Virus record (IMG/VR): IMGVR_UViG_3300021091_000002
Strand: one strand, 5' to 3'
Length of the DNA stretch: 31,427 nucleotides
Origin: an uncultured virus (IMG/VR IMGVR_UViG_3300021091_000002)
Taxonomy: Duplodnaviria; Heunggongvirae; Uroviricota; Caudoviricetes
Of the stretch, positions 3,917-31,427 are shown piece by piece. Position numbers and translations under genes: made by a program. Numbering within the stretch: position 1 is the stretch's first letter; each line of letters begins with the position of its first letter. A model generated the notes under the pieces. The model made no database searches, had not been told where the DNA came from, and was given only the letters and a program-made list of their open reading frames with translations.

Positions 3917-5713
3917 ATGGCCCGCAAATCCTTCGTAATACGCAGCTCTGCACCAAGTGGTGGTTCTTATCTACAGTATTATCCAGGTGGTATTGGAGCA
4001 TCACTGGGATCTGCTAGTGCTACGGGTTCTGCTTCAGCAGCATACATACGTGGTGACAGAGTTCAAGATAGACCAACACTTGGTACAGCTGTACCTGTTG
4101 GTAACGTTCTGTATAACGCAGCGTACTTTGAAGCAGTGGCATCTAACTATCAGGAAACCACCCTTACGTGGGATCTTACTTTGTATGATACAGACGCAGA
4201 AAATCCAAATTTAGTAAAACCGTATTCTGTTTTAATTGTGTACTCTAATTACGGGTGCCCAGACACTATCTCAGAGGGTATTGTTCTAGTTGAAACTAGA
4301 GATTCAAAAAAGCATGTGCATACACCAGTATTTGGTAGCTGGGCGTACTACTCAATGTTTATTAGGTACCGCTCACATGATGGTGATGACTACTATGAGA
4401 TCGTGTCAAAGATCCCAGTACTTCTACCGGTTGACCAAGATTCTTTGGAAGATCTTTACTCAAAAATTCCTGAGCACTATCGAGCTTTGGATGAGAACAG
4501 TTCTGGGGATCTTCGCAAGTTTCTGTCTGTATTTAGTTGGGACTTAGACAAAATAAAGTCAACTCTTAGACATTCCCTATCGATGCGAGACCCGTTAGTA
4601 GCGGATGAGGAATTACTAAACTATGTCGCTCAGGATCTAGGAGTTACCCTACGAACTAATGACATTGGATCTCAGAGACTTAGAGACTATTTGGTTAACT
4701 TCTCTAAACTAAAAAAGAGAGCGGGGTCTAAGTCTTCGGTAGAAGCACACCTCGAAGCCCTGTGTGGGGCTGACGTTCAAATAAACGATACCTTAAAGAC
4801 TATTAGTGTTTACCCTCAAAGGGCTAACCTTCTTTATGACCCAGCATTTGTAAATGGGATTGCGTCGGGTATTGATGGTGGTGAGCCCACCGTTGGTAAC
4901 AGCGCAATCTCGTATGATTCTGGTGTAGTGGGTCAAACCCAAACTGTTACTTATGACGGTGGAGCCACGCCCACAGCTACTCTGAGCTCTGGAACAGCCA
5001 CGACAGAGCGATGGGTAAGCTTTCCAGATCCTACCAATGCTCTCTACTCTTATTTAGAAACAGCTTCTACTGCTTCTCCGGGAAGCCCCAAATACATAAA
5101 AGTAACAGGTGGGGACATCCTATACTTCTCAATCTCAGTGCCAGCAGAAAGTAATGTTGCTGACTACGTAGAAGATTCTATTCTGTCAGTAGCGCTATAC
5201 GCTGCAGGAGGGGCATCGGGTGGGTCAGCCAACTTGATAACCACCGACACTACTTCTCAGGAATATGCTGGAAAGAAATACTGGAGATTAGAAGTTCCAA
5301 GCAGTGTTACTACCTACACAAACGCCGTTCTTAGTATTAAATTTGAAAATATCGTTGGTAGCTTTTCCATATCGTACTCTGACTTCCAATACGCTCTTCT
5401 TGAAAGAAACATAATTGGTGAATACTTTGATGGTAACACCGTACGGGGCGGATGGTTAATTGGTTCTACTGGGTCGATATCTGACTACAGATGGAAAGGC
5501 ACCCCGAATGATTCTCAGTCAGTCTTCTCGTCAAACTGGGCAAAAACACAGAACGTTATAGACAGACTTCTGCAGTATATTATCCCTGTTACAGAGTCCA
5601 TATCGTCTGGAACCTTGTATAGTAATGGGTACTACGCAAACAATGCTGGTTATGTAACAAAGATACCGACTTACAAGTACACTTTTACATACGACAAACT
5701 ACCAGGAGAATGA
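3917..5713 (+). CDS. Baseplate/tail protein with P2 gpI / gp7-like domain and beta-rich C-terminal region
   Basis: LYSKIPEHYRALD..DLRKFLSVFSWDLD..LLNYVAQDLG..KKRAGS is gpI-like; EYFDG near the C-terminus; follows gpJ. Confidence 0.75.
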   Translation: MARKSFVIRSSAPSGGSYLQYYPGGIGASLGSASATGSASAAYIRGDRVQDRPTLGTAVPVGNVLYNAAYFEAVASNYQETTLTWDLTLYDTDAENPNLVKPYSVLIVYSNYGCPDTISEGIVLVETRDSKKHVHTPVFGSWAYYSMFIRYRSHDGDDYYEIVSKIPVLLPVDQDSLEDLYSKIPEHYRALDENSSGDLRKFLSVFSWDLDKIKSTLRHSLSMRDPLVADEELLNYVAQDLGVTLRTNDIGSQRLRDYLVNFSKLKKRAGSKSSVEAHLEALCGADVQINDTLKTISVYPQRANLLYDPAFVNGIASGIDGGEPTVGNSAISYDSGVVGQTQTVTYDGGATPTATLSSGTATTERWVSFPDPTNALYSYLETASTASPGSPKYIKVTGGDILYFSISVPAESNVADYVEDSILSVALYAAGGASGGSANLITTDTTSQEYAGKKYWRLEVPSSVTTYTNAVLSIKFENIVGSFSISYSDFQYALLERNIIGEYFDGNTVRGGWLIGSTGSISDYRWKGTPNDSQSVFSSNWAKTQNVIDRLLQYIIPVTESISSGTLYSNGYYANNAGYVTKIPTYKYTFTYDKLPGE

Positions 5714-5977: not shown

Positions 5978-6781
5978 TTGAGTAAGAGTTCGACTTACGG
6001 GATTTTAGGAACGTCAGATGTTCCTCGAGAAGTCATCGTGGCGTCACTGTCAGACAGTGGTAACGCACAGTACATCATTCCTTGGTACGGCACCAAAAAG
6101 ATATCGCCAGCTCTTGAGCATGTGTATGACTGGATGATTGACAATAAAGCTAACTACCGAGTAGTTGAGTCTACGGAAGGACGCCCATTACCAAATGCAA
6201 TTAAAAAGCTAGCCACGGAAATAATTCAGGCCGATGCGGTAGACATAGAGATCATGCTGTGCCTTACAAAACATGAGGACAGCGCTGCGCTCATCATGTG
6301 GGATGAGGAGAACCCTCAGAGATCCTTGTTCCTTGCCTCAACAGCAATTAGCATGGGCATTCAATCATTGGAGCTTACAAACGGGCTGGTTCCCATCGTT
6401 GTTGAGGACTCCGACTTAATTGTGTCTTCAAACAACAACGACGACACATCAAAAATGCAAATTATTACAAAGAGTAATGCAGAAGCGCACATTGACACTC
6501 TTCTAGATCTAGACACGAGAAGTTTTGACAGAGAAACTTTAGAAGTGATGCCAGCAGTGTCGGTTAAGCGTATGGCAGCAAATGCTGGGTTTGATGTGAA
6601 GACTAAAGAAGAAGCTATCAATGCCCTAACAGGGGGTGTTGTTAAGGAACCAAACTCAAAGTTTGATGTTGGCACAGTTCTACTGATGTTCAACGATGGA
6701 ACAGAACTTGGGTTCTCTATGAATAGAGAGCTTCTAAAGCAGATCATGGATGTAGTTTTAGAGCATCAATCAAACTTGTAA
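5978..6781 (+). CDS. Hypothetical protein with alpha/beta N-terminal domain and possible Rho-N/HeH-like motif
   Basis: TTG start with AGGAG RBS. ETLEVMPAVSVKRMAANAGFDVKTKEEAINAL resembles a helix-extension-helix motif. Confidence 0.6.
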   Translation: MSKSSTYGILGTSDVPREVIVASLSDSGNAQYIIPWYGTKKISPALEHVYDWMIDNKANYRVVESTEGRPLPNAIKKLATEIIQADAVDIEIMLCLTKHEDSAALIMWDEENPQRSLFLASTAISMGIQSLELTNGLVPIVVEDSDLIVSSNNNDDTSKMQIITKSNAEAHIDTLLDLDTRSFDRETLEVMPAVSVKRMAANAGFDVKTKEEAINALTGGVVKEPNSKFDVGTVLLMFNDGTELGFSMNRELLKQIMDVVLEHQSNL

Positions 6782-8198: not shown

Positions 8199-8227
8199 TT
8201 GCGGATTGCAAATCCACCCGCTACGAT
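8199..8227 (+). promoter_or_regulatory. Putative sigma70-type promoter of the replication operon
   Basis: TTGCGG (8199-8204) - 17 bp - TACGAT (8222-8227), 10 nt before ATG 8238, which has no SD. Confidence 0.55.
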
Positions 8228-8237
8228 TCCAAGTCCA

Positions 8238-9491
8238 ATGGGAACTAGCAACGTATTTGGTGGGCGATTTATAGCCGTGCCAGAGTGGGCCTTGGCCTAC
8301 ATAAATGAGCATGGGCAACCCCGCGATCTGCAGGTTCTGACTTGTATTGTGTCAATGATACACTTGCACGATAAGTCGGTAACTGTGTCTGTGGTAGACC
8401 TAGCAAAGGTCGCCCGCACTTCAAAAGAAACTGTAAAGAGATCACTCAAGTGGTTGTCCGATAATTTTGTAATCGGTGTTACGGTTGGCAAAAAGCCAAG
8501 CCCAAACACGTATACGGTACACTACACACAGCAAGTAATGGGGTCATCAGTGACCCCATATAGGGTCATGGATGACCCATTGATGGGCACACCGGTGACC
8601 CCATTTGGGGTAGGGGATGGGGTCACACATGACCCTATCAAAACGATTGAAATTCCAGCGTGCGATGAGTTTTCTGAAACTCCTAGAGTAATACTACTAT
8701 TAAATAGAGAAAATACAAAATCTATAAAGAGGGCCGAGGGCCGGGATGGTATGGTTGTAGACATGATTATAGGTGCAGATCCAAATGAAATTTCTAAGGT
8801 TGAGGAACCGGCCAAACGCAAACCGCGTCCAGAGGTAAACAGCTTAGTAACCTACTTCGTATACCATCCACGATCAGTAATGAGCTGCTCCTACACTTTT
8901 CAAGAAACTCAAATACTTAGAAGAACAATACGGTTGCTGCTTGACTCAGGATTGACACGGGCATCCATCGCAAAAATGATCGATAAGTTCTTCAGCACAG
9001 ACCGAATGCGGTCAGCAGACTCACCAGTACATATGTTCTCTAGCAAATCTGTACAACAGTCATTAATGGAAAAGGTTGAAACTGAGCTAGATAGCGATAC
9101 CAGCCCGGTGCTTACGTTGATGCTCAATGATTTTAACAGAGACAATGTACAGCTACCGTGGGACTCATCATCAGACAAACACCTGCGAAACACCGTGATT
9201 ATGACTGCGATAGACGCGTGTTATAGATACCCGGAAGTAGTTGCTAGAGTTATTGAGTCAACGGTTGACTTTTCAATCCCAGAGTTTAAAAATAAACTTT
9301 TAGCTCTTAACTCACTGGTTAAATGGCATCTTAATACAGAGGATTGCGATAGAGATGAACTTATTAGCACCCTCTCCGGTATCACACTTCCAAAAGAATT
9401 GCTTGCTAAAACACGTTCATCCCTGAGACCAGCTGCTGATACTATTGTGTCAGCAATTTACAATTATAGAAGAGGTTCTCATGGGGTATGA
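8238..9491 (+). CDS. Putative replication initiator with N-terminal winged HTH
   Basis: SVVDLAKVARTSKETVKRSLKWLSDNFVIGV...PNTYTV is a wHTH pattern. It contains internal iterons and lies upstream of the DnaC-like and DnaB genes. Confidence 0.7.
   Translation: MGTSNVFGGRFIAVPEWALAYINEHGQPRDLQVLTCIVSMIHLHDKSVTVSVVDLAKVARTSKETVKRSLKWLSDNFVIGVTVGKKPSPNTYTVHYTQQVMGSSVTPYRVMDDPLMGTPVTPFGVGDGVTHDPIKTIEIPACDEFSETPRVILLLNRENTKSIKRAEGRDGMVVDMIIGADPNEISKVEEPAKRKPRPEVNSLVTYFVYHPRSVMSCSYTFQETQILRRTIRLLLDSGLTRASIAKMIDKFFSTDRMRSADSPVHMFSSKSVQQSLMEKVETELDSDTSPVLTLMLNDFNRDNVQLPWDSSSDKHLRNTVIMTAIDACYRYPEVVARVIESTVDFSIPEFKNKLLALNSLVKWHLNTEDCDRDELISTLSGITLPKELLAKTRSSLRPAADTIVSAIYNYRRGSHGV
8538..8635. repeat. Four palindromic iterons GGGTCA-N4-TGACCC (probable replication origin)
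   Basis: Copies at 8541-8556, 8563-8578, 8586-8601 (left half degenerate, GGCACA) and 8620-8635. AT-rich tract at about 8688-8728. Confidence 0.85.
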
Positions 9492-18691: not shown

Positions 18692-19103
18692 TTGGTGGGC
18701 TAAGAAGCTTAGTGGTAATCCAACCACTTCTGCTAGACCCACAACTTCATCTATGCCACCAACTACAATCCCTATACGCCTACCGTCTGGGCTGACTCAC
18801 TCTAATCCTCAGCCATACAAAGACACCCCACTACCTCAACCTGTATCAAACGAACCCATTACCAGAGGGCCAGGATGGTTGGGTGAAGCACTAAGACAAC
18901 CGCATCTATGGGAAGGTCGAGGAGAAGCTGCTAAGAAGCAGGGAAATCTAACCTGCCCAGAGTGTGGTAGTGGCAACGTGTTTATACGCACAGCTAAAGG
19001 TGGAAACACAACAATCAACGGTAACAGCCCAGCACCGCGATGCTTTGAATGCGGTTGGAATGGTATGTACGACCAAGCCTCCCAAGCTTCTTGGGTAGTA
19101 TAA
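18681..19103 (+). CDS. Zinc-ribbon hypothetical protein
   Basis: CPECGSGN...RCFECGW and a Pro/Thr-rich N-terminal half. Confidence 0.75.
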   Translation: MSSDWWAKKLSGNPTTSARPTTSSMPPTTIPIRLPSGLTHSNPQPYKDTPLPQPVSNEPITRGPGWLGEALRQPHLWEGRGEAAKKQGNLTCPECGSGNVFIRTAKGGNTTINGNSPAPRCFECGWNGMYDQASQASWVV

Positions 19104-19117
19104 CAACAAGGAAAACA

Positions 19118-20137
19118 ATGAAAAGTGAAACTGGCCGTGAGAGCCTTGAATCCATTATTTCTTCTATTAACAAGAAATATGGAGATCAAGTTATTGTCCA
19201 AGGAAACAAAGTAAAAGAAGAAGTTCCACGTATTACAACAGGCGTACTAGCTTTTGACCTTATGCTTGGAGGCGGGTGGCCGATGAACCAATGGTCTGAA
19301 ATCATTGGTGACGAGTCATCAGGAAAAACAGCCTTGGCTTACAAGACCATAGCTGCTAACCAAGCTGCTGATCCAGAGTGGGTGGCTATGTGGATTGCCG
19401 CCGAAGAGTTTGTTCCAGACTACGCCAAGGCAATTGGTGTAGACCTCGACCGACTTTGGGTAGTTGAGACCAACGTAATGGAACAGGTCTACGACCTGAT
19501 TATTCGTGCAATGGAGAATAGGGCAGTTGACTGTATTGTCCTAGATTCACTTCCGGCACTAGTCCCAGGTGATGAAGCTGAGAAGATGATGGATGAGTTC
19601 TCGATGGGTCTAGGAGCCAGACTGACTGGAAAGTTTTTCCGTAAGAGCAGTAAGGCGCAAAAGAGGTCGTTGATTGACGAGGATCGCGGGTGCACTGGTT
19701 TGATCATCAACCAATGGCGAGAGAAGATTGGCGTGATGTATGGAGACCCACGCACCACACCAGGCGGTAAAGCCAAGAACTTTCATTACTTTGTAAGACT
19801 AGAAGTAAAACGAGATGAGTGGTTGAAGTTTAAGGATGAGCCAGTAGGTCAGACCATTAAAGCCAGAACTCTAAAGAATAAAACGTACAGACCACAGCAG
19901 GTTGCTGTTGTTGACTTCTACTTTGCCAATTGCCAACCATTCAAACTAGGTGATTTTGATGTGATCAAAGACATTGTTAACATCTGTATTGCAACAGACA
20001 TAATCACAAGAGCTGGAGCCTACTACAACTACAAAGACCAAAAGTGGCAAGGAAAAGATGCCCTGTTGCTTGGGGTTCGCGAAGACTTGGAACTACAATC
20101 TGAACTCAAAGAGAAAGCAAAGGAGTATTTCCTATGA
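19118..20137 (+). CDS. recA: RecA-family recombinase
   Basis: TTGVLAFDLMLGGG, GDESSGKT, IVLDSLPALVP, INQWREKIGVMYGDPRTTPGGKA, AGAYYNY. Confidence 0.95.
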   Translation: MKSETGRESLESIISSINKKYGDQVIVQGNKVKEEVPRITTGVLAFDLMLGGGWPMNQWSEIIGDESSGKTALAYKTIAANQAADPEWVAMWIAAEEFVPDYAKAIGVDLDRLWVVETNVMEQVYDLIIRAMENRAVDCIVLDSLPALVPGDEAEKMMDEFSMGLGARLTGKFFRKSSKAQKRSLIDEDRGCTGLIINQWREKIGVMYGDPRTTPGGKAKNFHYFVRLEVKRDEWLKFKDEPVGQTIKARTLKNKTYRPQQVAVVDFYFANCQPFKLGDFDVIKDIVNICIATDIITRAGAYYNYKDQKWQGKDALLLGVREDLELQSELKEKAKEYFL

Positions 20138-20487
20138 TATTCGGTAAAGAAAACAGAGCAGATCAACAGCGTGAAACTATGAGAGCTTCCAAGAAGCAGG
20201 AGAAGCGTTCTGCCAAGATGTATAGAGGCAGTAGGAACGCAGGATCTGGGTCTGGTTGGCTTAGAAAGAACGACGTGCGCACTCACGAGCTTCTTATTGA
20301 GAACAAGCTTACAAACAATCTAAAGTCTTACTCAATTAAGGCTAGTGAGTTGGCTGACCTTACTCAACGCGGTGTCCTTGAAGATCGGCTTCCCGTACTT
20401 CAGTTTGACCTTGGGGGCAGACACTACGTAATTCTTAACGAGGCTGACTTCCAAATGTTGGTAGGAGTAGACGGGGATCGCTTGTGA
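20134..20487 (+). CDS. PD-(D/E)XK nuclease, Holliday-junction resolvase-like
   Basis: SKKQEKR...AGSGS...KNDV...LIENK..KSYSIK. Confidence 0.7.
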   Translation: MIFGKENRADQQRETMRASKKQEKRSAKMYRGSRNAGSGSGWLRKNDVRTHELLIENKLTNNLKSYSIKASELADLTQRGVLEDRLPVLQFDLGGRHYVILNEADFQMLVGVDGDRL

Positions 20488-21353
20488 CAGAGGCGCCTTG
20501 GTACGCCAAGACTTACAAAGAATCAATAAAGTCCAAAGGTCGTATACTACCAGTAATCCAAGAGCGTCTTGTGATAAACAACCGCGAGAGAAACAAACAC
20601 AGAGACACTGACCATTTGCACCCTTCTGAGCTTTCAAAAAAAGATTGGTGTGCTAGAGCCGCGTGGTATAAAATTAACAAGTATCCTGCCTTAGATGAGT
20701 CATATAATATGACTAGGTTGAACGTGTTTGAGGAGGGCCATGCGATTCATGCAAAGTGGCAAAAGTGGATGCACCAAGCTGGGATACTTGGTGGCAAATG
20801 GGAATGTGCGTCGTGTTCTGAAGTATGGTACGGGGTTTCTCCTAGCCATTGCCACCAGTGCAATTCTAGTAATGTCATTTATCGCGAGGTACCTGTACGT
20901 GACGATGGGTTTCGCATACTCGGTCACGCGGATGGAGAGTTGGTTGATGGAGAAGGCAAAGCTCTTATTGAAATAAAGAGCGTTGGTCTGGGCACTGTTC
21001 GGTGGGATCACCCAAACTTGTACAAAGCATACTCAAGTGGCGAGCTAACACTTGATGGTCTTTGGAAAAACATAAAAAAGCCATTTGCTTCCCATGTCCG
21101 CCAGGGCCACATCTACATGCACTGTACAGGCCACGACAAGATGGTGTTTATCTATGAGTGGAAGCCCACCCAGGAGGTAAAAGAGTTTACCGTTATCTTT
21201 CAAAAAGAAATAATTCAACCAATTCTTGACAACTGCAGCAAAGTTATCGCACACTTAGAGGACAACACTGAGCCCGAACACCCAGTTTGGGCAACTGATA
21301 GTAAAGCCACCGGTTGTAAATACTGCCCATACCAGAAAGTTTGTTGGAATTGA
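20484..21353 (+). CDS. Cas4/RecB-like PD-(D/E)XK exonuclease
   Basis: LHPSEL..WCAR, GHAIH, GHADG...IEIKS, Q..IYM, C-terminal CKYCPYQKVC; extra internal CxxC/CxxC. Confidence 0.88.
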   Translation: MTEAPWYAKTYKESIKSKGRILPVIQERLVINNRERNKHRDTDHLHPSELSKKDWCARAAWYKINKYPALDESYNMTRLNVFEEGHAIHAKWQKWMHQAGILGGKWECASCSEVWYGVSPSHCHQCNSSNVIYREVPVRDDGFRILGHADGELVDGEGKALIEIKSVGLGTVRWDHPNLYKAYSSGELTLDGLWKNIKKPFASHVRQGHIYMHCTGHDKMVFIYEWKPTQEVKEFTVIFQKEIIQPILDNCSKVIAHLEDNTEPEHPVWATDSKATGCKYCPYQKVCWN

Positions 21354-21845: not shown

Positions 21846-22025
21846 ATGTCAGACCCCTACGGATACCAGGCAGCCAAGGAAGCCAACCAGGCACTAAATC
21901 GCCAGCGTGAGGCTTACCGGTCCACAACAGAGCCCCTGTTGAAGGTCAACGATACTCTTGTTGAGATCCTTAATGAACTTCGTAAGATCAGCAAGGCGGT
22001 GAGCGGTGATGTCAAACAGGGCTAA
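21846..22025 (+). CDS. Small coiled-coil hypothetical protein
   Basis: ATG 21846 with GGAG RBS. Confidence 0.6.
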   Translation: MSDPYGYQAAKEANQALNRQREAYRSTTEPLLKVNDTLVEILNELRKISKAVSGDVKQG

Positions 22026-22374
22026 ACAAAAAGGTACATCGTTTGAAACATCTATCAAACGTTACCTCAACGCTAACGGCTTTCTAAAAGCAGCCCGTAC
22101 CGTACTCAAAGGTAGTGAGGACACTGGGGATATCAACGGCATCAGAAACCACATTGCCGAAAGAGAGCTTGCGATACAGTGTAAAAACCAACGTAAGCTA
22201 AACCTAAGTGGTTGGTTAGACGCAACTGTTGAGCAAGCGTCTAAACTTGGCAAGTCAATGCCAGCTTTAGTTGTTAAGAGGGCTGGTAAAGGTGAAAAAG
22301 CACTAGGTGATACCTACGTTGTGATGCGGTTAGATGACTTTGTTACTCTGCTGAAAGAGGGCGGTTACTCGTAA
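22009..22374 (+). CDS. Holliday-junction resolvase, Hjc-like PD-(D/E)XK
   Basis: MSNRAKQKGTSFE...DTGDI...IQCKN...W...A...PALVVKR...YVVMRLDDF. Confidence 0.85.
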   Translation: MSNRAKQKGTSFETSIKRYLNANGFLKAARTVLKGSEDTGDINGIRNHIAERELAIQCKNQRKLNLSGWLDATVEQASKLGKSMPALVVKRAGKGEKALGDTYVVMRLDDFVTLLKEGGYS

Positions 22375-22418: not shown

Positions 22419-22700
22419 ATGTCTCAAGAACCGGTAGACGATATTGTAAAAGTATCAGGTGGAAGCAACCCACAAAGCGTAGGGTCAATTGTAGCCAGGT
22501 CAGTGATTGCTGGACAGTCCCCTAAAATGCGCGCAATAGGAGCCAGCGCTGTTAACCAAGCAGTTAAAGCTTGCGCTATTGCTAGAGGATTCGTGGCACC
22601 AAGAGGGGTCGATTTGTGTTTCATCATAGGGTTTGATGACATACCCGGAGACAACGGAGAGACAATTTCCGCCATCTCTTTTAAGCCTGTTACTAGGTAA
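22419..22700 (+). CDS. spoVS: SpoVS-family protein
   Basis: VKVSGGSNPQSV...RAIGASAVNQAVKACAIARGFVAPRGVDL...F...ISAISF matches the SpoVS consensus; GGAG RBS. Confidence 0.93.
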   Translation: MSQEPVDDIVKVSGGSNPQSVGSIVARSVIAGQSPKMRAIGASAVNQAVKACAIARGFVAPRGVDLCFIIGFDDIPGDNGETISAISFKPVTR

Positions 22701-22765: not shown

Positions 22766-25700
22766 ATGGCAAAGAACCCCAAGAAAAAAATTGAAGGTTT
22801 AATTTCTAAGTCAATTGAAGAAGCAAGAGAAGATGATGCTAGAGTAAACTCTAAAAAAGATGACGCTCCAAAATCGGACGACGCTTCAACACGCTCACGC
22901 CCAGACAAGCCACTGCTCACAGGTAGTCCTAAAAAGCCAATTCCTCCTCCACCTCCACCCAAGGGGCCAAAGCAGGTAACTAGCACTGAGCTAACTGACG
23001 AAGATAGAGAAATAATTGAAGAGACACTAAAGTTACCTAAAGAAAAGGCTCCAGGTGAGGTACAAAGTCCTTATGATCAACGTCTAGCGGAACTTCCTCC
23101 GCACGTTAGGCGTGAGATTATGAAAGAAGACCCAGGTAGAAACCGGGCTAGAGACCGAGCTCGTAAAGCTGCTGAAAGAAACACCCCAGAAGATAAAAAG
23201 CGCAAAGGTCACACCACTGGAGAAACTCGTAAAGGTGACATAAAACGAGCACGAAATAAAAAAACAAACGAAGAACGATCTCGTGAACTATCCGAAAAAG
23301 CTAAAGCTAAGGCTTTAAAATTCTCCACTGAAGCCGAAATCGCGGATATGAAATACGACAAAGCCGCTGCTTATGATGCTGAACTTCTTGCACCAGGAAG
23401 CCCAGGGGCGCCTGACTTGCCCTCGGCGCTACAAGGCATCCCAGAATTCCTACGGACGTACACCACTGGTGGGTTGCCTGGTATTTCCTACGACCCTAAG
23501 AGCCCCTACGCAGATAAACACGGATACGTTAGCTCAAGGGATGGGAAAACCCCAACAGAACAGGATCTAGTAGCTCACATAATATTCTTGGGTGGTATAC
23601 CCGGAGTTGATGATTTAGATGACGTAGAGTTGATGAGTAATAAAGGCCCGGTTAACATAGCAGAGCTGTACCAGGCAACCGGTGACATTGACTCTGAGGG
23701 TATGCCCGAGTTTGATCTAGGGGTAATGAACCCCGTAGATCTAACTGTTACAGACGCTGCAAGACAGGCTGCATCTAAGGCTAGCTCTGCCAAATCAGAG
23801 ATGGTTCAAGACACAGAGAGACGTCGTGCTGAGGCTGAATTTGCCGAATCTAACGAAGCAGTTTATGGGGTAGGACCAACCACAGCCAGGCAAAGATTGG
23901 ACCAGGACATAGAGGTTGACCCAGATCTTGCACAATCTAGACTTGGCCCAGATGGTACACCGTCTAATCGTGGTCCTATACCGCAAGCTACTACTAGAGA
24001 ACAACGCGAGGCCGCTAGATTAGGGTATACACGTAGGTTGCTCACTAGAGCGCTTAACTACCGTGATAAATTTCGCGACATGGAAAAAAGTGACAACACT
24101 TTTGATACATTTTCATCCACAGAGCCGCAGAGAGGCTCTTATGGAAGAGGAAAAGAAGGGGATAGAGCCTATCAACAAGACCTTGTTCTTTATAATCTTT
24201 CCTTTGGAAAAAAGACTCAACTGCAAGAGTCTATGGAGCGTGAACAACGCAACGTTAGGATAAAAGCGGCAAAAGAGCACCTAACAGCTGTTGCAGAAAA
24301 CGACCCAACGGTCGCTTACTTTTTAAAAAATGTTGGTCATGAAAGAGTCGCAGAATCATTACTATCTCCTGGGTCTTACACAGAAACGTTTGGGCCAGAT
24401 GGTTTTACGTTTGAAGGGGAAGAACAAGGACTAACACACTCAGAATTCCAAGACGCGTTTGGGTTTGACAAAGACGTAAGAAATGAATTTATTCGTCAAA
24501 CTAGCACAGCTTATCCAAATTCAGGTAGGCAGACAACTGAAGTTCACGACCCAGTAACAGGTCAAGTAATCTCTGTCATTACGCGACCTGGGCTTCGTAA
24601 AGATGTTGTTGAAGACCAACTGTCTAAATTTGGCGGTTCGGTTAGATCTCGACCCGCTGATGCACGAGGGGGTCCTGCATACCTTTATCGTGACACCGCC
24701 CCAGGTCCAAAGGACTACCTATACAGCCATATATTTGATCTACAAGAGTCACTTCCAAAACAACCAGCCGGTACTGTTCTCCCTTCCCAAAAGAGAGAGG
24801 GTGACCCCGGATCAAAAAGAATTACCGGTAGTGGTCTAACTAGATCCCAGCTACAGGTTGTTAATGAGTTCCGTAAGCAGGGTAAATTAGGAAGTATTAG
24901 ATCAAACGAAATATTCAGCGAAGGGGTGCAAGACCCAACCTTAAACCCGCTTTTATTTAAGGTAGACCCAGTTACAAAAGTTGAAACAGCTAAAGATGCA
25001 CATGGTAAATTTACTAGATCCGCTGCTAAAAGAGTCAAACAAAGAGCCTTAGAATCTGGAACCCTAGCACCCAGAGCTTTAGTATACGAAACACGCTTAA
25101 GTGACCAGACAGAAGACGTACAAGTACCTGTTATTGAAAATGACGAAACGGGTAATCCAACAGTAACTGGAATGCGTACCGAAAAGAGACGCAAAACAGT
25201 TCAATCTCCGGTTATGGAAGACTACCAAGAAGTTGACGATAAAGGAAAACTAAAGTTTCAAAGAAAACAAAAAGTTGATGATGCTGGAAACCCAGTGTAC
25301 GATGAGAACAACAAACCAGTAATGAAAAACATACCCGTTATGGGTAAGAGGCAAAAAACTGCTCCTGTTGGAGTTGACGCTTCTGGAATAAGACTTGGAG
25401 TATTCCAAAGACAACCAAAAACAGTAACGGGTGGTAAAGACCTAGAAACCGGAGAACCTTTAACAGAAACTGCACTTGGTGTTTCTCAGCAAATCACTGG
25501 GTATGGTGAAGTAGCTGCACGTGCAATTCAACAAGCAGCTAATCGTGGGACCCTTTCACCAGAGCTTAGGGTGCAGTTTGGTTTGACATCTACTAAAGAT
25601 GCAGAAAAACTCATACGTACCGCAGAAAGACTTGAAGAAAAAGATGCAACTGATGAGGAATACGCAAAAGCATTAGGAAAGTCTGCAGAAGCTTTTAATT

Positions 25701-28612
25701 TAAGAAGTATACACATAGCTTCTGCTTTAAAAGACCTGGAAGAAGCTAGAAGATTACGAAGAAGCGCCGAAGAACAAACAAGAAAAGATATAGAAGCAGG
25801 CACGCACACTAAATTAAACGCAGCCGGTGAAGAAGTTGAAGGTATGTCACCTCCTGGTGACCCTCCAGATAGATTTTCCTACGCCATGGACGATAAAGGT
25901 TTAGAAGAATACGAGGCTGAAAAAAGAAGACATAGTGCAAAACGTGGGCAGGTAACACGGGAAATTAAAGACGCAGGTAGAAAAGCCGTTGAACGGCACA
26001 TTCAGAGGATAAGAAACCAGTCAGAGCTTGAGTTCGACGTAAGGACTAGTGATTTTGTCTATGAAGAAATAGATGTAGGCGGAGAAACAGTAAGAAGACC
26101 AAAACTTAAGGAAGATTCGGCAGGAGATAAAGGTACTGCAAGAGTTAGCAACGAAATACGAGCAACCATACTTGAACGTTTACTTGGAACCCCCCCATCT
26201 GCTGAGAAAAGGACAATCAAACGACGTGTGTACGGGGGTAAATACTACACAACCGAAAACCGTGAGGTAAATGGGCGCAAAATATTCCCTGCGGGACTGT
26301 CGTGGGCTGGCGTCGAAGACGTAATTGGTATGGAAGTTGAGGATATTGGAGATGTAGAATACACCCATAACCCCTCAGAGAGAGAAAAAAAGGATTGGGA
26401 AAAATATAACGACTACACTCGTAATAAGGACCTACCAGCAGAAATAGCCATAAATAACATACTTAGTAGTTTTCCAAAGCTTGATGAATCAGGTCAAGTT
26501 GTATATTCTGACGATGAAAAAAAGATACCTGAAAAAATGTTCCCAGAAGCTCCACCTGAGATGGGATCCCTTTTACAGGAGATGGGGCTAACTGATAAAG
26601 CAGAACGAATTGCAAGACTTAGTAGAGGAGACTTCACTCCAGAAGACGCAGCTTATGCCCGCGCTGTTAGACAACGTGGTTACAAAGCTACAGCTTCTGG
26701 TATTACTCCAAGATCCGAATCGCAAGAACGGAGACTTCAAGATGCAAAAGAAGGTAAGACTGATAAAGTAGCTGACGCACTTAACGAAAGGTACAGAGAA
26801 GCGGAACGCCATCAAAAAGAAGCACAAGCACTAGCAAAAGCAAAACTTACCGAACCACTCTCACCTTTGTCCGCACCAGCTGGTGTGTCTGGTTATGCAG
26901 CACTACCATTTTTGCCCCAAAGACGTAAAAAGATAATAAATGATGATGGTAGCATTAGGTACGGCGCAACAACAGGAATTCCCGTAACCGGCAACCAGTT
27001 TGCAGGTGTAGACCCATTACGCAGATATGCAAAAAATAGAATGGGAGATATAGTTACTGAAAATGAAGACAGCCCATTGATAGATCCAATGAACCTTGCC
27101 TTTCAGGAAGAACAACCTGGAACCTATAACTATCCAATTGCGTCTAACGATCTCCAAGATAGGCAACGCAAAGGCCGCAACTGGCTCATTTCTAAACAAA
27201 CGAAGATGGATGACAGTGGCATCGTTAAGTATACAAGCATAAACCCAATTGATAAGGTCGTCCAAGCACCTACCGCTGATAGTAGTACAGCATCTGTTGG
27301 ATCAAGTAGTGGTAGTGTGCCGTCTGTTGGTTCACGTGCGGGTACTGGCGAACATCAACTAACTACATATGACTTCAAAGATATACAAAGCCAGCTTCAG
27401 GAACTAAAAACAACTGGTCGGCAAAAAATAGCTGATCAGCTAGCTGAATCTGCAGCTTTCGGAGACTTGAGAGAAAACGCCGAACACGTAGCTAATCTTG
27501 CTGAGCAAACAAGGCATGAATCCAGAATTAGTGAACTAGAGCACAAACTAGATAACCATACTATTATAGATCCATTTGCTACACCAGGAGTTGGTCCAGG
27601 TAAGCACGTTACATTAGAGCTAAATGGTATAACACAAACGTATGAAATACCTACAGGTGAAAAATCATCCGTTGGAAAACACCCACGATTGTCATCAAAA
27701 TCACCGATAGGTGCAGCCATCGTAGGAAAAGACGTGGGGCACACCTTTGAAGTGACAACGCCAGGTGGACGTGTTTCTGGAACGGTAAAAGGGGTTGAAG
27801 TCGCGCAAAAAGAAACAGTAGCTAAAGGTAACCCCAACACACAGTCGAAAACCGCACCTGAAACACTAGGCGATAAGGCTAAAGATAAAGATGAAAAACC
27901 AAAATGGACACGGAGAGGAACGATGCGTTCTACAGGAAACATGGTGCGATTTGGAAACATGGTTAGAGGTATCCCTCAAAAGGTCAAACCACAACCCCGA
28001 GATACTGCTCCTGTGTCAGATTCTACTAAGTTAGCTTCTATTTTAGAATCTCTTCCAGACTCCTATGCTATTTCAGGACAGGTTAGACAAAATATTGGAA
28101 AAGCCATTGACGCAAACATGCCGATAGGACCAGGATTTGAAACGCCAGACTTTCTAGACAGATTTGTTGAAGATGAGCTAAGGTCTAGACAGCCTGGGCC
28201 ACCTATTGTTGTCAACAACCAACCAATCAGTGGTTCTACGAGGACTAATGTCCGTTCCGGTTCAGTAAGATTCCCCATAAACGTTGGTAGCGAAGGTCCT
28301 GATACTATGACGCCAGGGAGGACAAATAAAGAACTTCCAGTTGGTACTAGTTCTGTTGTTTTGCCGGAAGCAAAGATATCAGAAATTCAGGAATCAACAG
28401 AGTCGGCGCAGGCTAGACGTGCAACTCCTAAGTTTGTGAAAGAAGATGCTATATCACAAGCTGCTAAATATCCAGTTCCGGTAACAAATCCAAACCCAAG
28501 CCGTCCTAAACCACTAACAAAATTTCAAATGGATAAAAAATTATCACCACAATTTGACAATACTCCTAATATTTCTGGAAATACTTCGCAAATAGACCCA
28601 GATAACCAGTAG
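22766..28612 (+). CDS. 1948-aa hydrophilic, cysteine-free protein with embedded GreA/GreB domain (probable virion-internal/multidomain protein)
   Basis: Long uninterrupted ORF with GGAG RBS. Highly charged and Pro-rich, no Cys by manual scan, Gre-like region at aa about 1530-1678. Confidence 0.85.
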   Translation: MAKNPKKKIEGLISKSIEEAREDDARVNSKKDDAPKSDDASTRSRPDKPLLTGSPKKPIPPPPPPKGPKQVTSTELTDEDREIIEETLKLPKEKAPGEVQSPYDQRLAELPPHVRREIMKEDPGRNRARDRARKAAERNTPEDKKRKGHTTGETRKGDIKRARNKKTNEERSRELSEKAKAKALKFSTEAEIADMKYDKAAAYDAELLAPGSPGAPDLPSALQGIPEFLRTYTTGGLPGISYDPKSPYADKHGYVSSRDGKTPTEQDLVAHIIFLGGIPGVDDLDDVELMSNKGPVNIAELYQATGDIDSEGMPEFDLGVMNPVDLTVTDAARQAASKASSAKSEMVQDTERRRAEAEFAESNEAVYGVGPTTARQRLDQDIEVDPDLAQSRLGPDGTPSNRGPIPQATTREQREAARLGYTRRLLTRALNYRDKFRDMEKSDNTFDTFSSTEPQRGSYGRGKEGDRAYQQDLVLYNLSFGKKTQLQESMEREQRNVRIKAAKEHLTAVAENDPTVAYFLKNVGHERVAESLLSPGSYTETFGPDGFTFEGEEQGLTHSEFQDAFGFDKDVRNEFIRQTSTAYPNSGRQTTEVHDPVTGQVISVITRPGLRKDVVEDQLSKFGGSVRSRPADARGGPAYLYRDTAPGPKDYLYSHIFDLQESLPKQPAGTVLPSQKREGDPGSKRITGSGLTRSQLQVVNEFRKQGKLGSIRSNEIFSEGVQDPTLNPLLFKVDPVTKVETAKDAHGKFTRSAAKRVKQRALESGTLAPRALVYETRLSDQTEDVQVPVIENDETGNPTVTGMRTEKRRKTVQSPVMEDYQEVDDKGKLKFQRKQKVDDAGNPVYDENNKPVMKNIPVMGKRQKTAPVGVDASGIRLGVFQRQPKTVTGGKDLETGEPLTETALGVSQQITGYGEVAARAIQQAANRGTLSPELRVQFGLTSTKDAEKLIRTAERLEEKDATDEEYAKALGKSAEAFNLRSIHIASALKDLEEARRLRRSAEEQTRKDIEAGTHTKLNAAGEEVEGMSPPGDPPDRFSYAMDDKGLEEYEAEKRRHSAKRGQVTREIKDAGRKAVERHIQRIRNQSELEFDVRTSDFVYEEIDVGGETVRRPKLKEDSAGDKGTARVSNEIRATILERLLGTPPSAEKRTIKRRVYGGKYYTTENREVNGRKIFPAGLSWAGVEDVIGMEVEDIGDVEYTHNPSEREKKDWEKYNDYTRNKDLPAEIAINNILSSFPKLDESGQVVYSDDEKKIPEKMFPEAPPEMGSLLQEMGLTDKAERIARLSRGDFTPEDAAYARAVRQRGYKATASGITPRSESQERRLQDAKEGKTDKVADALNERYREAERHQKEAQALAKAKLTEPLSPLSAPAGVSGYAALPFLPQRRKKIINDDGSIRYGATTGIPVTGNQFAGVDPLRRYAKNRMGDIVTENEDSPLIDPMNLAFQEEQPGTYNYPIASNDLQDRQRKGRNWLISKQTKMDDSGIVKYTSINPIDKVVQAPTADSSTASVGSSSGSVPSVGSRAGTGEHQLTTYDFKDIQSQLQELKTTGRQKIADQLAESAAFGDLRENAEHVANLAEQTRHESRISELEHKLDNHTIIDPFATPGVGPGKHVTLELNGITQTYEIPTGEKSSVGKHPRLSSKSPIGAAIVGKDVGHTFEVTTPGGRVSGTVKGVEVAQKETVAKGNPNTQSKTAPETLGDKAKDKDEKPKWTRRGTMRSTGNMVRFGNMVRGIPQKVKPQPRDTAPVSDSTKLASILESLPDSYAISGQVRQNIGKAIDANMPIGPGFETPDFLDRFVEDELRSRQPGPPIVVNNQPISGSTRTNVRSGSVRFPINVGSEGPDTMTPGRTNKELPVGTSSVVLPEAKISEIQESTESAQARRATPKFVKEDAISQAAKYPVPVTNPNPSRPKPLTKFQMDKKLSPQFDNTPNISGNTSQIDPDNQ
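27353..27799 (+). other. greA: GreA/GreB transcription elongation factor domain inside the giant protein
   Basis: LT...F..IQ.QL.ELK..GR.KIA..LAESAAFGDLRENAE....AEQ...E.RI.ELE.KL coiled coil, then V..G..VTL...TY.I...LSSKSPIGAAIVGKDVG.TFEV.TPGG C-terminal domain. Confidence 0.93.
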
Positions 28613-31086: not shown

Positions 31087-31427
31087 ATGCCTTTTGACGG
31101 AAACTTTTATACAAATAATCCAGACCTGGCCCCAACTTTTGACTTCTACCAGGAACGTCTTAAACAGCAGGGAACCCTACCAGGTTCCTGGCAACTGCGT
31201 AATGCATACAGCTCAGGAATACCTGCATCCGGTAGTAACCCAAGTTCTCCCGGATTTGCGTCAAGCTACTCACGTGATATAAACACAGGCGGTAAGTCAC
31301 CAGGAACTGCCTATCAAGCTAGGTCAGTTTCAGGAACGATGCGTGCCCCTCAGGGCGGTACTGCCTACGGCCCCGGCTCAGAAGAGCAAACCGTAAAGAA
31401 CTTTTTTGGTAAAATGGGTAAATTAAA
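31087..31427 (+). CDS. 3'-truncated Gly/Ser/Pro-rich hypothetical protein (not in ORF track)
   Basis: ATG 31087, 1 nt after the previous stop. MPFDGNFYTNNPDLAPTFDFYQERL... stays open to the window end. Confidence 0.75.
   Translation, partial: MPFDGNFYTNNPDLAPTFDFYQERLKQQGTLPGSWQLRNAYSSGIPASGSNPSSPGFASSYSRDINTGGKSPGTAYQARSVSGTMRAPQGGTAYGPGSEEQTVKNFFGKMGKL

Follow-up and report, generated by a model that had tools for sequence, protein, structure and literature searches.

Results and discussion

A complete Gre factor within a giant phage protein

The stretch of DNA analysed here (31,427 nucleotides from the uncultured caudoviricete virus IMGVR_UViG_3300021091_000002, referred to below as the window) contains an open reading frame (ORF) for a protein of 1948 amino acids (aa), here called the giant protein, which carries a transcription factor of the Gre family near its C-terminus. 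The ORF is the largest of the window and its ATG is preceded by the sequence GGAG at a distance of 12 nucleotides. The parts of the gene are listed below by their positions in the window. Conservation is measured as the number of invariant columns in an alignment of six giant proteins, and the confidence of structural models is expressed as the predicted local distance difference test (pLDDT).

22766–28612, + strand: the giant ORF, 1948 aa (positions include the stop codon)
22766–23365, + strand: basic and very hydrophilic N-terminal region, aa 1–200 (isoelectric point 9.7, grand average of hydropathicity −1.5; 85 of 200 columns invariant in six homologues)
23072–26695, + strand: body common to the Gre-less proteins P0009 and P0010, aa ~103–450 and ~585–1310 (BLASTP 7e-28 and 5e-20)
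23438–23635, + strand: small island with the highest conservation in the body, aa ~225–290, IPEFLRTY..GYVSS..GGIPGVDD (dense invariant columns in 8 of 8 sequences, the Gre-less ones included)
26966–27349, + strand: variable linker ahead of the Gre module, aa 1401–1528, with a Ser/Gly-rich end (pLDDT 29–48; 27 of 128 columns invariant; many indels)
27356–27565, + strand: Gre N-terminal coiled-coil domain, aa 1531–1600 (Pfam PF03449, 1.5e-15)
27461–27484, + strand: acidic tip GDLRENAE, aa 1566–1573 (by alignment to 1grj; invariant in 6 of 6 homologues)
27590–27799, + strand: Gre C-terminal globular domain, aa 1609–1678 (Pfam PF01272, 7.3e-10)
27701–27730, + strand: SPIGAAIVGK loop, aa 1646–1655 (aligned with SPIARGLIGK of E. 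coli GreA)
27803–28609, + strand: fast-evolving basic tail, aa 1680–1948 (18 of 269 columns invariant; pLDDT mostly below 50; isoelectric point 9.6)
27935–27976, + strand: short conserved tail motif GNMVRFGNMVRGIP, aa 1724–1737 (G1724, R1728, G1730, R1734, G1735 and P1737 invariant)
28541–28567, + strand: motif LSPQFDNTP close to the C-terminus, aa 1926–1934 (LSPQFD or LSGQFD in 5 of 6 homologues; not in P0008)

A preliminary description of this DNA had placed a whole Gre factor at positions 27353–27799, which correspond to aa 1530–1678 in the frame of the giant ORF, and searches with hidden Markov models bear this out. With the whole protein as query, the Pfam model GreA_GreB_N (PF03449) matched aa 1531–1600 with profile positions 2–71 of 71 (E = 1.5e-15, 57.5 bits against a cut-off of 24.5), and the C-terminal model GreA_GreB (PF01272) matched aa 1609–1678 with positions 6–76 of 77 (E = 7.3e-10, 39.1 bits against a cut-off of 26.9). 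The NCBIfam GreA models TIGR01462 and NF001263 align to the Gre part over almost their whole length. The closest solved structure by sequence is E. coli GreA (1grj; E = 3e-12 with the single protein as query), and a profile built from 5 module sequences matched GreA 1grj at 5e-23, GreB at 4e-16 and Gfh1 at 2e-11. The segment aa 1531–1678 is a complete GreA-type factor with both domains in their usual order.

The residues that the preliminary description had singled out at the tip of the coiled coil, D1567 and E1570, align in the comparison with 1grj to D41 and E44 of E. coli GreA, which we take to be the functional acids of that protein. All 6 homologues share the tip G1566-D-L-R-E-N-x-E1573 unchanged, as do 5 of 5 in a second alignment. 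In the SPIG..GK loop, which presumably takes part in docking on RNA polymerase (RNAP), residues S1646, P1647, I1648, G1649, A1651, I1652, G1654 and K1655 are invariant among six homologues, and a G-x-G-E-H sequence directly ahead of the module is invariant as well. The surroundings of the module are also as they had been described, with a Ser/Gly-rich stretch upstream (aa 1501–1528) and a charged stretch behind it.

For aa 1400–1948 an AlphaFold2 model was built from six aligned homologues. Its pLDDT averages 50.3; aa 1530–1679 (model residues 131–280) mostly reach about 80–93, with a dip to 56–71 near aa 1630–1649, and both flanks lie below 50. Two long antiparallel helices, aa 1534–1563 and 1572–1597 (model residues 135–164 and 173–198), are followed by the C-terminal domain, which is beta-rich and has a pLDDT of about 71–87 except for one block at 56. 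A Foldseek search of PDB gave 13 matches with E ≤ 0.001, and ranks 1–11 are all members of the Gre family (GreA, GreB, Gfh1, and entries annotated GreA/GreB). Among the matches are 9a7t_B with E = 5.7e-10, 1grj with a template modelling (TM) score of 0.67, and the HelD chain 6wvk_H of a B. subtilis RNAP complex with E = 8.4e-04. We are confident in the predicted fold, an antiparallel coiled-coil hairpin followed by a small beta-rich domain in the Gre topology. In the model, the module both begins and ends at the base of this hairpin, on the side away from the tip, where attached linkers would leave the finger free, and it appears that a Gre factor can be spliced into a linker without the finger being blocked. 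The linker at aa 1401–1528 is probably disordered, as is probably the tail at aa 1680–1948, and the models support a picture of the module as a bead between two variable and seemingly unstructured linkers, placed near the C-terminus of a large non-Gre protein.

Continuity and conservation of the fusion

A word-indexed search of 5.8 billion proteins, in which 7999 candidates were scored with a threshold of E ≤ 0.001, found six Gre-bearing proteins with lengths of 1948–2050 aa and identities of 45–100%, each of them with the two Gre Pfam domains. The viral contig L064 holds a seventh, distinct copy that shares 83% identity with the homologue P0007; there the Gre N domain was found once, within an open frame of 1955 aa. 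There are no frame breaks in any of the 7 Gre-bearing homologues. The locus of P0008 was not found among the viral contigs. A protein of 435 aa on a 2.8-kb contig, P0011, looks like the C-terminal part of a further giant.

The preliminary description had allowed for a chimeric junction at the domain edges, and this can be excluded. Positions 26800–28400 are covered unbroken, without joints or indels, by a 24.5-kb contig of run X15 and again by a 14.7-kb contig of run X18, which belongs to another study and year. Both domain edges are also bridged by pieces from X16 and X20. Together with the conservation of the fusion in the homologues, these contigs rule out a chimeric assembly: the Gre fusion is physically continuous and is not an assembly artefact.

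The proportion of invariant columns differs strongly along the protein. It amounts to 85 of 200 in the N-terminal region, 431 of 1200 (36%) in the body, 27 of 128 (21%) in the linker, 58 of 151 (38%) in the Gre module and 18 of 269 (7%) in the tail, and the flanks of the module both drift and vary in length among homologues. The module is as constrained as the core of the protein, whereas its flanks are not. These figures are difficult to reconcile with a decaying or neutral passenger that was captured once and is inactive on any polymerase. Such a passenger would account for the absence of the module from orthologues of a sister clade and for scores below the cut-offs of the GreA equivalog models (both described below), but it would not be expected to match the core in conservation (38% against 36%) between flanks at 21% and 7%, to keep its tip and its SPIG..GK loop invariant between members that share only 47% overall identity, or to stay free of frame breaks in 7 homologues. 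We consider this explanation highly improbable.

The continuity of the frame bears equally on the possibility that the giant protein is a precursor, from which a free Gre factor of ~150 aa would be released by proteolysis of the linkers, or produced by internal initiation, and act as a standalone phage GreA. The 120 nucleotides before the module contain no ATG and no clear Shine-Dalgarno sequence, and the only in-frame GTG is without an obvious ribosome site; moreover, neither a protease gene nor a cleavage motif was identified, and the continuous frame is kept in 7 of 7 Gre-bearing homologues. A precursor of this kind is therefore improbable in our judgement, even though it would be consistent with the flexible linkers on both sides of the module, with the invariant G-x-G-E-H boundary just upstream of it, and with the standalone Gre ORF of 156 aa that we encountered in one record of a phage collection.

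Orthologues without the module

An exhaustive HMMER search of 1.84 billion representative sequences, with aa 200–1399 as the query and a threshold of E ≤ 0.001, returned only four proteins, namely the giants P0007 and P0008 and the shorter proteins P0009 (1527 aa) and P0010 (1560 aa). The latter two share 27–33% identity with the giant protein over aa ~103–450 and ~585–1310, and neither has a Pfam family at E ≤ 0.1. A by-eye resemblance to a Gre remnant in the C-termini of these Gre-less proteins was dropped as a candidate, because a profile of the module with its flanks gave no match with all filters off.

A protein 81% identical to P0009 is encoded on a viral contig of 93,972 bp (L006, genome G002) that is rated 100% complete, and it lies at the same syntenic position as the giant gene. 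The order of genes on L006 is as follows.

Upstream: SNF2 helicase, single-stranded DNA-binding (SSB)-like protein, family-A DNA polymerase, RecA/UvsX-like protein, Holliday junction resolvase
Next: Cas4-like exonuclease, RusA-like protein, SpoVS-like ORF of 93 aa, giant gene
After the giant gene: several ORFs of no recognised type, DpdA-like transglycosylase, WhiB-like protein, glycosyltransferase

G002 has sheath, portal, terminase and major head genes, and the sheath together with the other structural genes identifies it as a myovirus. The Gre N domain was found in 0 of 2 records of this complete relative (the control was positive in 9 of 14 genomes), which indicates that the module has not merely been relocated to a separate gene there. 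The survey of relatives proposed in the preliminary description thus yielded both states, 7 homologues with the Gre module and three proteins of about 1530–1560 aa without it (P0009, P0010 and the L006 copy), and the module is a lineage-specific feature of an otherwise orthologous gene. The best explanation of these observations is that the giant gene occupies a fixed place in a small group of freshwater myoviruses of roughly 75–94 kb, and that the module is present in one clade only. Its earlier characterisation as an inserted module is borne out to the extent that a Gre-less orthologue exists at the same genomic position, but the direction of the change does not follow from it: the Gre domain stems from cells and must have been taken up at one stage or another, and gain versus loss in this family is not polarised without an outgroup.

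The searches for a donor were negative. None of the 34 candidates in a word-based search for relatives of near the same length was significant, and a genome scan gave 55 GreA loci with 24–34% identity, mostly from metagenome-assembled genomes of Deltaproteobacteria and Thermodesulfobacteriota, in a sample biased by the search patterns; neither the word-based search nor the genome scan identified the donor of the module. By tblastn, 11 of 50,697 records in the phage collection matched, all over the Gre part only. At least some of these 11 are bacterial or prophage-like records, and the one match that was opened is the 156-aa standalone ORF mentioned above. Megablast found no close relatives among deposited phages.

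The remainder of the giant protein

The giant protein is unusual in its composition. It contains no cysteine in 1948 residues, compared with 59 in 7037 residues (0.84%) of the 26 other ORFs of the window, and at the frequency of those ORFs the chance of finding none is ~7.5e-8. Tryptophan accounts for 0.21% against 1.65% in the same 26 ORFs, and hydrophobic residues for 23% against 33%. All eight family members (including P0004–P0010) are free of cysteine and have 4–9 tryptophans each in 1527–2050 residues. The giant protein as a whole is strongly hydrophilic, with basic ends. In the AlphaFold2 model of the body the pLDDT averages 52.2 and about half of the residues (602 of 1200) stay under 50; its confident parts are an island at aa ~239–274, helices at ~499–579 and long helices at ~979–1139 (the N-terminal aa 1–200 lie outside both this model and that of the C-terminal part). 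The lack of cysteine, the hydrophilic composition and the low pLDDT together suggest that the giant protein is extended or disordered over much of its length, and we regard it as probably largely disordered.

The two Gre domains are the sole recognisable family in the giant protein. It has no PHROG family. Pfam at E ≤ 10 was blank for the tail and for both leading pieces of 500 aa, and for aa 1001–1529 it gave no more than weak matches under the threshold. Aa 1–1529 had no match in PDB by sequence, and ESM Atlas gave no usable match. With the body model as query, the best Foldseek match had E = 0.11 in PDB and E = 1.2e-3 in BFVD, the latter with TM ≤ 0.07, although the low confidence of the body model means that blanks in these fold searches say little. 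The most conserved island of the body, at aa ~225–290, has a model pLDDT of 73–77 and no family match. Self-BLAST revealed no internal repeats. Scans around the gene gave 6 promoter-like sites against 10.4 ± 3.5 in shuffled sequences and 14 terminator-like sites against 9.7 ± 3.0, neither of them clearly above chance. The motifs GNMVRFGNMVRGIP and LSPQFDNTP form conserved islands in the variable tail and may be short linear binding motifs.

A tape measure protein was considered as an identity for the giant protein and rejected. G002 has a separate tape measure gene of 1009 aa (phrog_16823) between the tube and hub genes, and the giant gene sits after the replication and recombination module instead.

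A segment of the tail, aa 1740–1831 (27983–28258), shows a weak likeness to the C-terminal core of RNAP beta/Rpb2, with E = 0.54 in a search with the whole protein and 0.034 with the tail alone. Taken at face value, this likeness could mean that the giant protein is a very divergent two-barrel RNAP with a built-in Gre factor. We give this scenario hardly any credence and regard it as largely refuted. The likeness is probably due to chance: the tail motif is not kept in P0007 and P0008, and the tail is the least conserved region of the protein and is modelled without structure. In addition, there is no Pfam RNAP domain even at E ≤ 10, a D-x-D-G-D motif was not seen on reading the translation, and the body is without a fold match.

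Genomic neighbourhood and probable dependence on the host polymerase

The genes surrounding the giant gene are listed below. Positions marked L004 refer to the same contig beyond the window, where position 31427 of the window equals L004 18662; the last entry is from the relative G002.

19049–20137: RecA/UvsX-like recombinase, in the same module as the resolvases
20134–20487: Holliday-junction resolvase-type gene (phrog_2002)
20484–21353: Cas4-like exonuclease
22006–22374: RusA-like Holliday-junction resolvase-type gene (phrog_244)
22419–22700, + strand: SpoVS-like ORF of 93 aa, directly upstream of the giant gene (Pfam SpoVS 3.7e-20, 71.9 bits against a cut-off of 24)
L004 21322–22764: DpdA-like queuine tRNA-ribosyltransferase homologue, downstream of the giant gene
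L004 23412–23786: WhiB-like regulator, ~8 kb downstream of the giant gene (Pfam 3.6e-15; PHROGs agrees)
L004 24886–25842: glycosyltransferase, downstream of the giant gene
L068 10431–10982, − strand: sigma-factor-like protein of 183 aa in G002 (phrog_351, 1.4e-11)

The stretch is present in 20 runs labelled as lake-water or freshwater metagenomes, with no RNA run listed, and has a GC content of 41–47%. In freshwater data sets, actinophages are recognised by means of whiB (PMC10914622). The WhiB-like gene near the giant gene indicates that the host is probably an actinobacterium.

None of 4 related records matched the Rpb1 catalytic domain, for which the control was positive in 14 of 14. A search for the single-subunit RNAP family PF00940 also gave 0 of 4, but its control was likewise 0 of 14 genomes and the result is uninformative. 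The lack of an Rpb1-type domain and the presence of a sigma-like gene in the relative suggest that the phage most likely transcribes its genes with the host RNAP core, and reliance on the host RNAP makes that polymerase the obvious target of the Gre module.

A proposed tether to the host RNA polymerase

The Gre module was folded together with residues 480–1150 of the beta' subunit of M. smegmatis. The docking score was 0.53, compared to 0.05 for the best control, and was rated by the tool as "weak support". Of 157 solved complexes 116 come up to the mark for a pass, as do 2 of 215 mismatched pairs; only 18 of those 157 solved complexes, but both of the passing mismatches, score ≤ 0.60. Contacts agree between runs to at least 85%, and the partner has a pLDDT of at least 73. 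The preliminary description had suggested structure prediction with a bacterial RNAP as a check, and the outcome is a weak score, obtained with a beta' fragment as a stand-in and with similar complexes already solved.

These results lead us to propose, with moderate confidence and on the strength of sequence comparison and modelling, that the GreA-type module docks in the secondary channel of the host RNAP, tethers the giant protein to it, and probably reactivates backtracked or paused complexes on phage DNA. The C-terminal domain of the module would dock at the rim of the channel and the coiled-coil hairpin would reach the active site with D1567 and E1570 at its tip. The tip acids could then promote cleavage of backtracked RNA, which is the weakest step of the proposal in view of Gfh1. 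The whole giant protein would thereby be held on the host polymerase.

Several observations weigh against this proposal. The identity of the module to the cellular GreAs that we encountered is only 24–37%, and the whole protein scores under the cut-offs of the NCBIfam GreA models (94.3 bits against 139 for TIGR01462 and 87.8 against 145 for NF001263; the excised module gives 99.8 and 91.2 bits, respectively). The existence of Gre-less orthologues implies that the module is dispensable for the core role of the giant protein. The docking pass may reflect likeness only, given that Gre–RNAP and Gfh1–RNAP complexes have already been solved, and it was a weak one, obtained with a polymerase fragment that stands in for the host RNAP. 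Nothing indicates the role of the 1500-aa body, and any purpose ascribed to the tether is a guess. Finally, Gfh1 of Thermus keeps an acidic tip and nevertheless inhibits the polymerase, so conservation of the tip cannot distinguish activation from inhibition.

The last point leads to the alternative that the module acts as a plug in the manner of Gfh1, filling the secondary channel to inhibit transcription or to exclude the host Gre factors as part of host takeover. The docking evidence is the same for a plug as for an activating factor, Gfh1 structures are among the significant matches of both the sequence and the fold searches, and Gfh1 combines an acidic tip with inhibition. The module profile, however, favours GreA (5e-23) far over Gfh1 (2e-11), and a general inhibitor would harm a phage that itself seems to depend on the host RNAP over the whole infection, as judged from the Rpb1 domain (0 of 4 related records), from the WhiB-like gene and from the sigma-like gene of the relative. 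We consider a plug rather unlikely.

The giant gene has its fixed place behind the replication and recombination genes, which hints that the tether may help to clear polymerases from replicating phage DNA, although position alone is weak evidence. We can further speculate that the giant protein is a disordered hub that would use Gre as a hook, either holding the elongating host RNAP at the replication and recombination machinery or travelling with the injected DNA. This extension is doubtful at present; were it true, the hub might free rapidly replicating phage DNA of backtracked polymerases or link genome entry to transcription.

Comparison with known systems

The phage module resembles bacterial GreA (1grj) in having the same two domains in the same order, the same fold (TM 0.67), the tip acids and the SPI(A/G)..G-K loop. 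Unlike bacterial GreA, it is embedded at aa 1531–1678 of a protein of 1948 aa, with long flanks on both sides, and it falls below the NCBIfam GreA cut-offs. The statement in the preliminary description that Gre factors are standalone proteins of about 160 aa proved incomplete, since long cellular Gre fusions exist. Two of them are represented by the NCBIfam models NF011309/PRK14720 (906 positions) and NF004969/PRK06330 (718 positions), the second of which is titled "transcript cleavage factor/unknown domain fusion protein"; we take both to represent spirochaete or chlamydial proteins. In each a complete Gre factor is joined to a long non-Gre part, as in the giant protein, but the Gre part is C-terminal (757–902 of 906 and 570–702 of 718), whereas the phage protein continues for 270 aa after it. 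Scored against these models, the giant protein reaches 30.3 bits for NF011309 (cut-off 714) and 25.1 bits for NF004969 (cut-off 697), and the Gre part alone aligns. We found 27 further long proteins (326–923 aa) with both Gre Pfam domains; outside the Gre part they bear no relation to the phage giant. The long forms include many of ~611 aa with PF27167, and others of ~725 aa, of 900 aa with tetratricopeptide repeats (TPR), and of ~400 aa. Two Ala/Arg-rich proteins of the last size, P0012 and P0013, combine an N-terminal domain of ~230 aa and unknown type with a C-terminal GreA and are likewise unrelated to the phage giant.

The secondary channel of RNAP is a regulatory port for Gre factors, DksA/TraR, Gfh1 and HelD, and to our knowledge it is small TraR-like proteins that phages employ there. 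HelD differs from the phage protein in that it possesses ATPase domains of the helicase type but not the canonical Gre C-terminal domain; in the phage protein the Gre factor is complete and no enzyme domain can be recognised. The two are alike in being large proteins with a Gre-like coiled coil, and the HelD chain 6wvk_H is among the Foldseek matches of the module. HelD (10.1101/2020.07.20.211821) occurs in Gram-positive bacteria and actinobacteria as a helicase-like factor that recycles RNAP. It is a larger protein whose Gre-like coiled coil enters the secondary channel. The TraR/DksA-like factors encoded by phages and plasmids, among them Orf73 of lambda, act via the same channel (PMC9239242). 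They differ from the giant protein in having only ~70 aa, in belonging to the DksA/TraR family and not to Gre, and in not being fused to a giant protein.

A further comparison is with the polyvalent proteins that Iyer et al. 2017 (PMC5512222) described from conjugative elements and phages, which are very large, contain 2–15 recognisable domains and are delivered with the DNA. The giant protein is likewise a very large phage protein with a module aimed at a host machine, but polyvalent proteins are defined by at least two recognisable effector domains and the giant protein has Gre only. A word search of the main text of PMC5512222 for "GreA", "Gre", "DksA" and "secondary channel" gave no occurrence of any of them. 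In the literature covered, which does not extend to subscription journals, we found no giant phage protein described as containing a Gre factor, in agreement with the preliminary description, whose author knew of no characterised case. Long Gre fusions in bacteria are thus already known, and what appears to be new here, with no report found, is a Gre fusion in a phage protein.

If the proposed tether exists, it would be a novel means of coupling a large cargo to the elongating host polymerase, and the natural orthologues with and without the module provide a ready-made comparison. The module also gives a handle on otherwise opaque phage proteins, which are giant, free of cysteine and probably disordered, and which belong to phages of abundant and mostly uncultured freshwater hosts. 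If, on the other hand, the module acts as an ordinary GreA, it would be a modest addition to the host-like genes that phages carry.

Other genes of the region

An ORF of 93 aa is found at the place matching the SpoVS-like ORF both in L006 (9656–9937, phrog_35646) and in L064 (9654–9935, known by position and length only), and the SpoVS-like neighbour may work together with the giant protein. It is overlapped by a spurious ORF of 100 aa on the opposite strand. Sizeable ORFs without a Pfam or PHROG match occur at 3917–5713 (598 aa), 5978–6781 (267 aa) and 8199–9491 (430 aa), between the baseplate and replication modules, and at L004 18322–20145 (607 aa), downstream of the giant gene. The recombination module of the window comprises two different genes of the Holliday-junction resolvase type, and G002 has a second SNF2-type helicase at L069 2848–4320. 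The DpdA-like gene downstream of the giant gene suggests that the phage DNA may carry a 7-deazaguanine modification.

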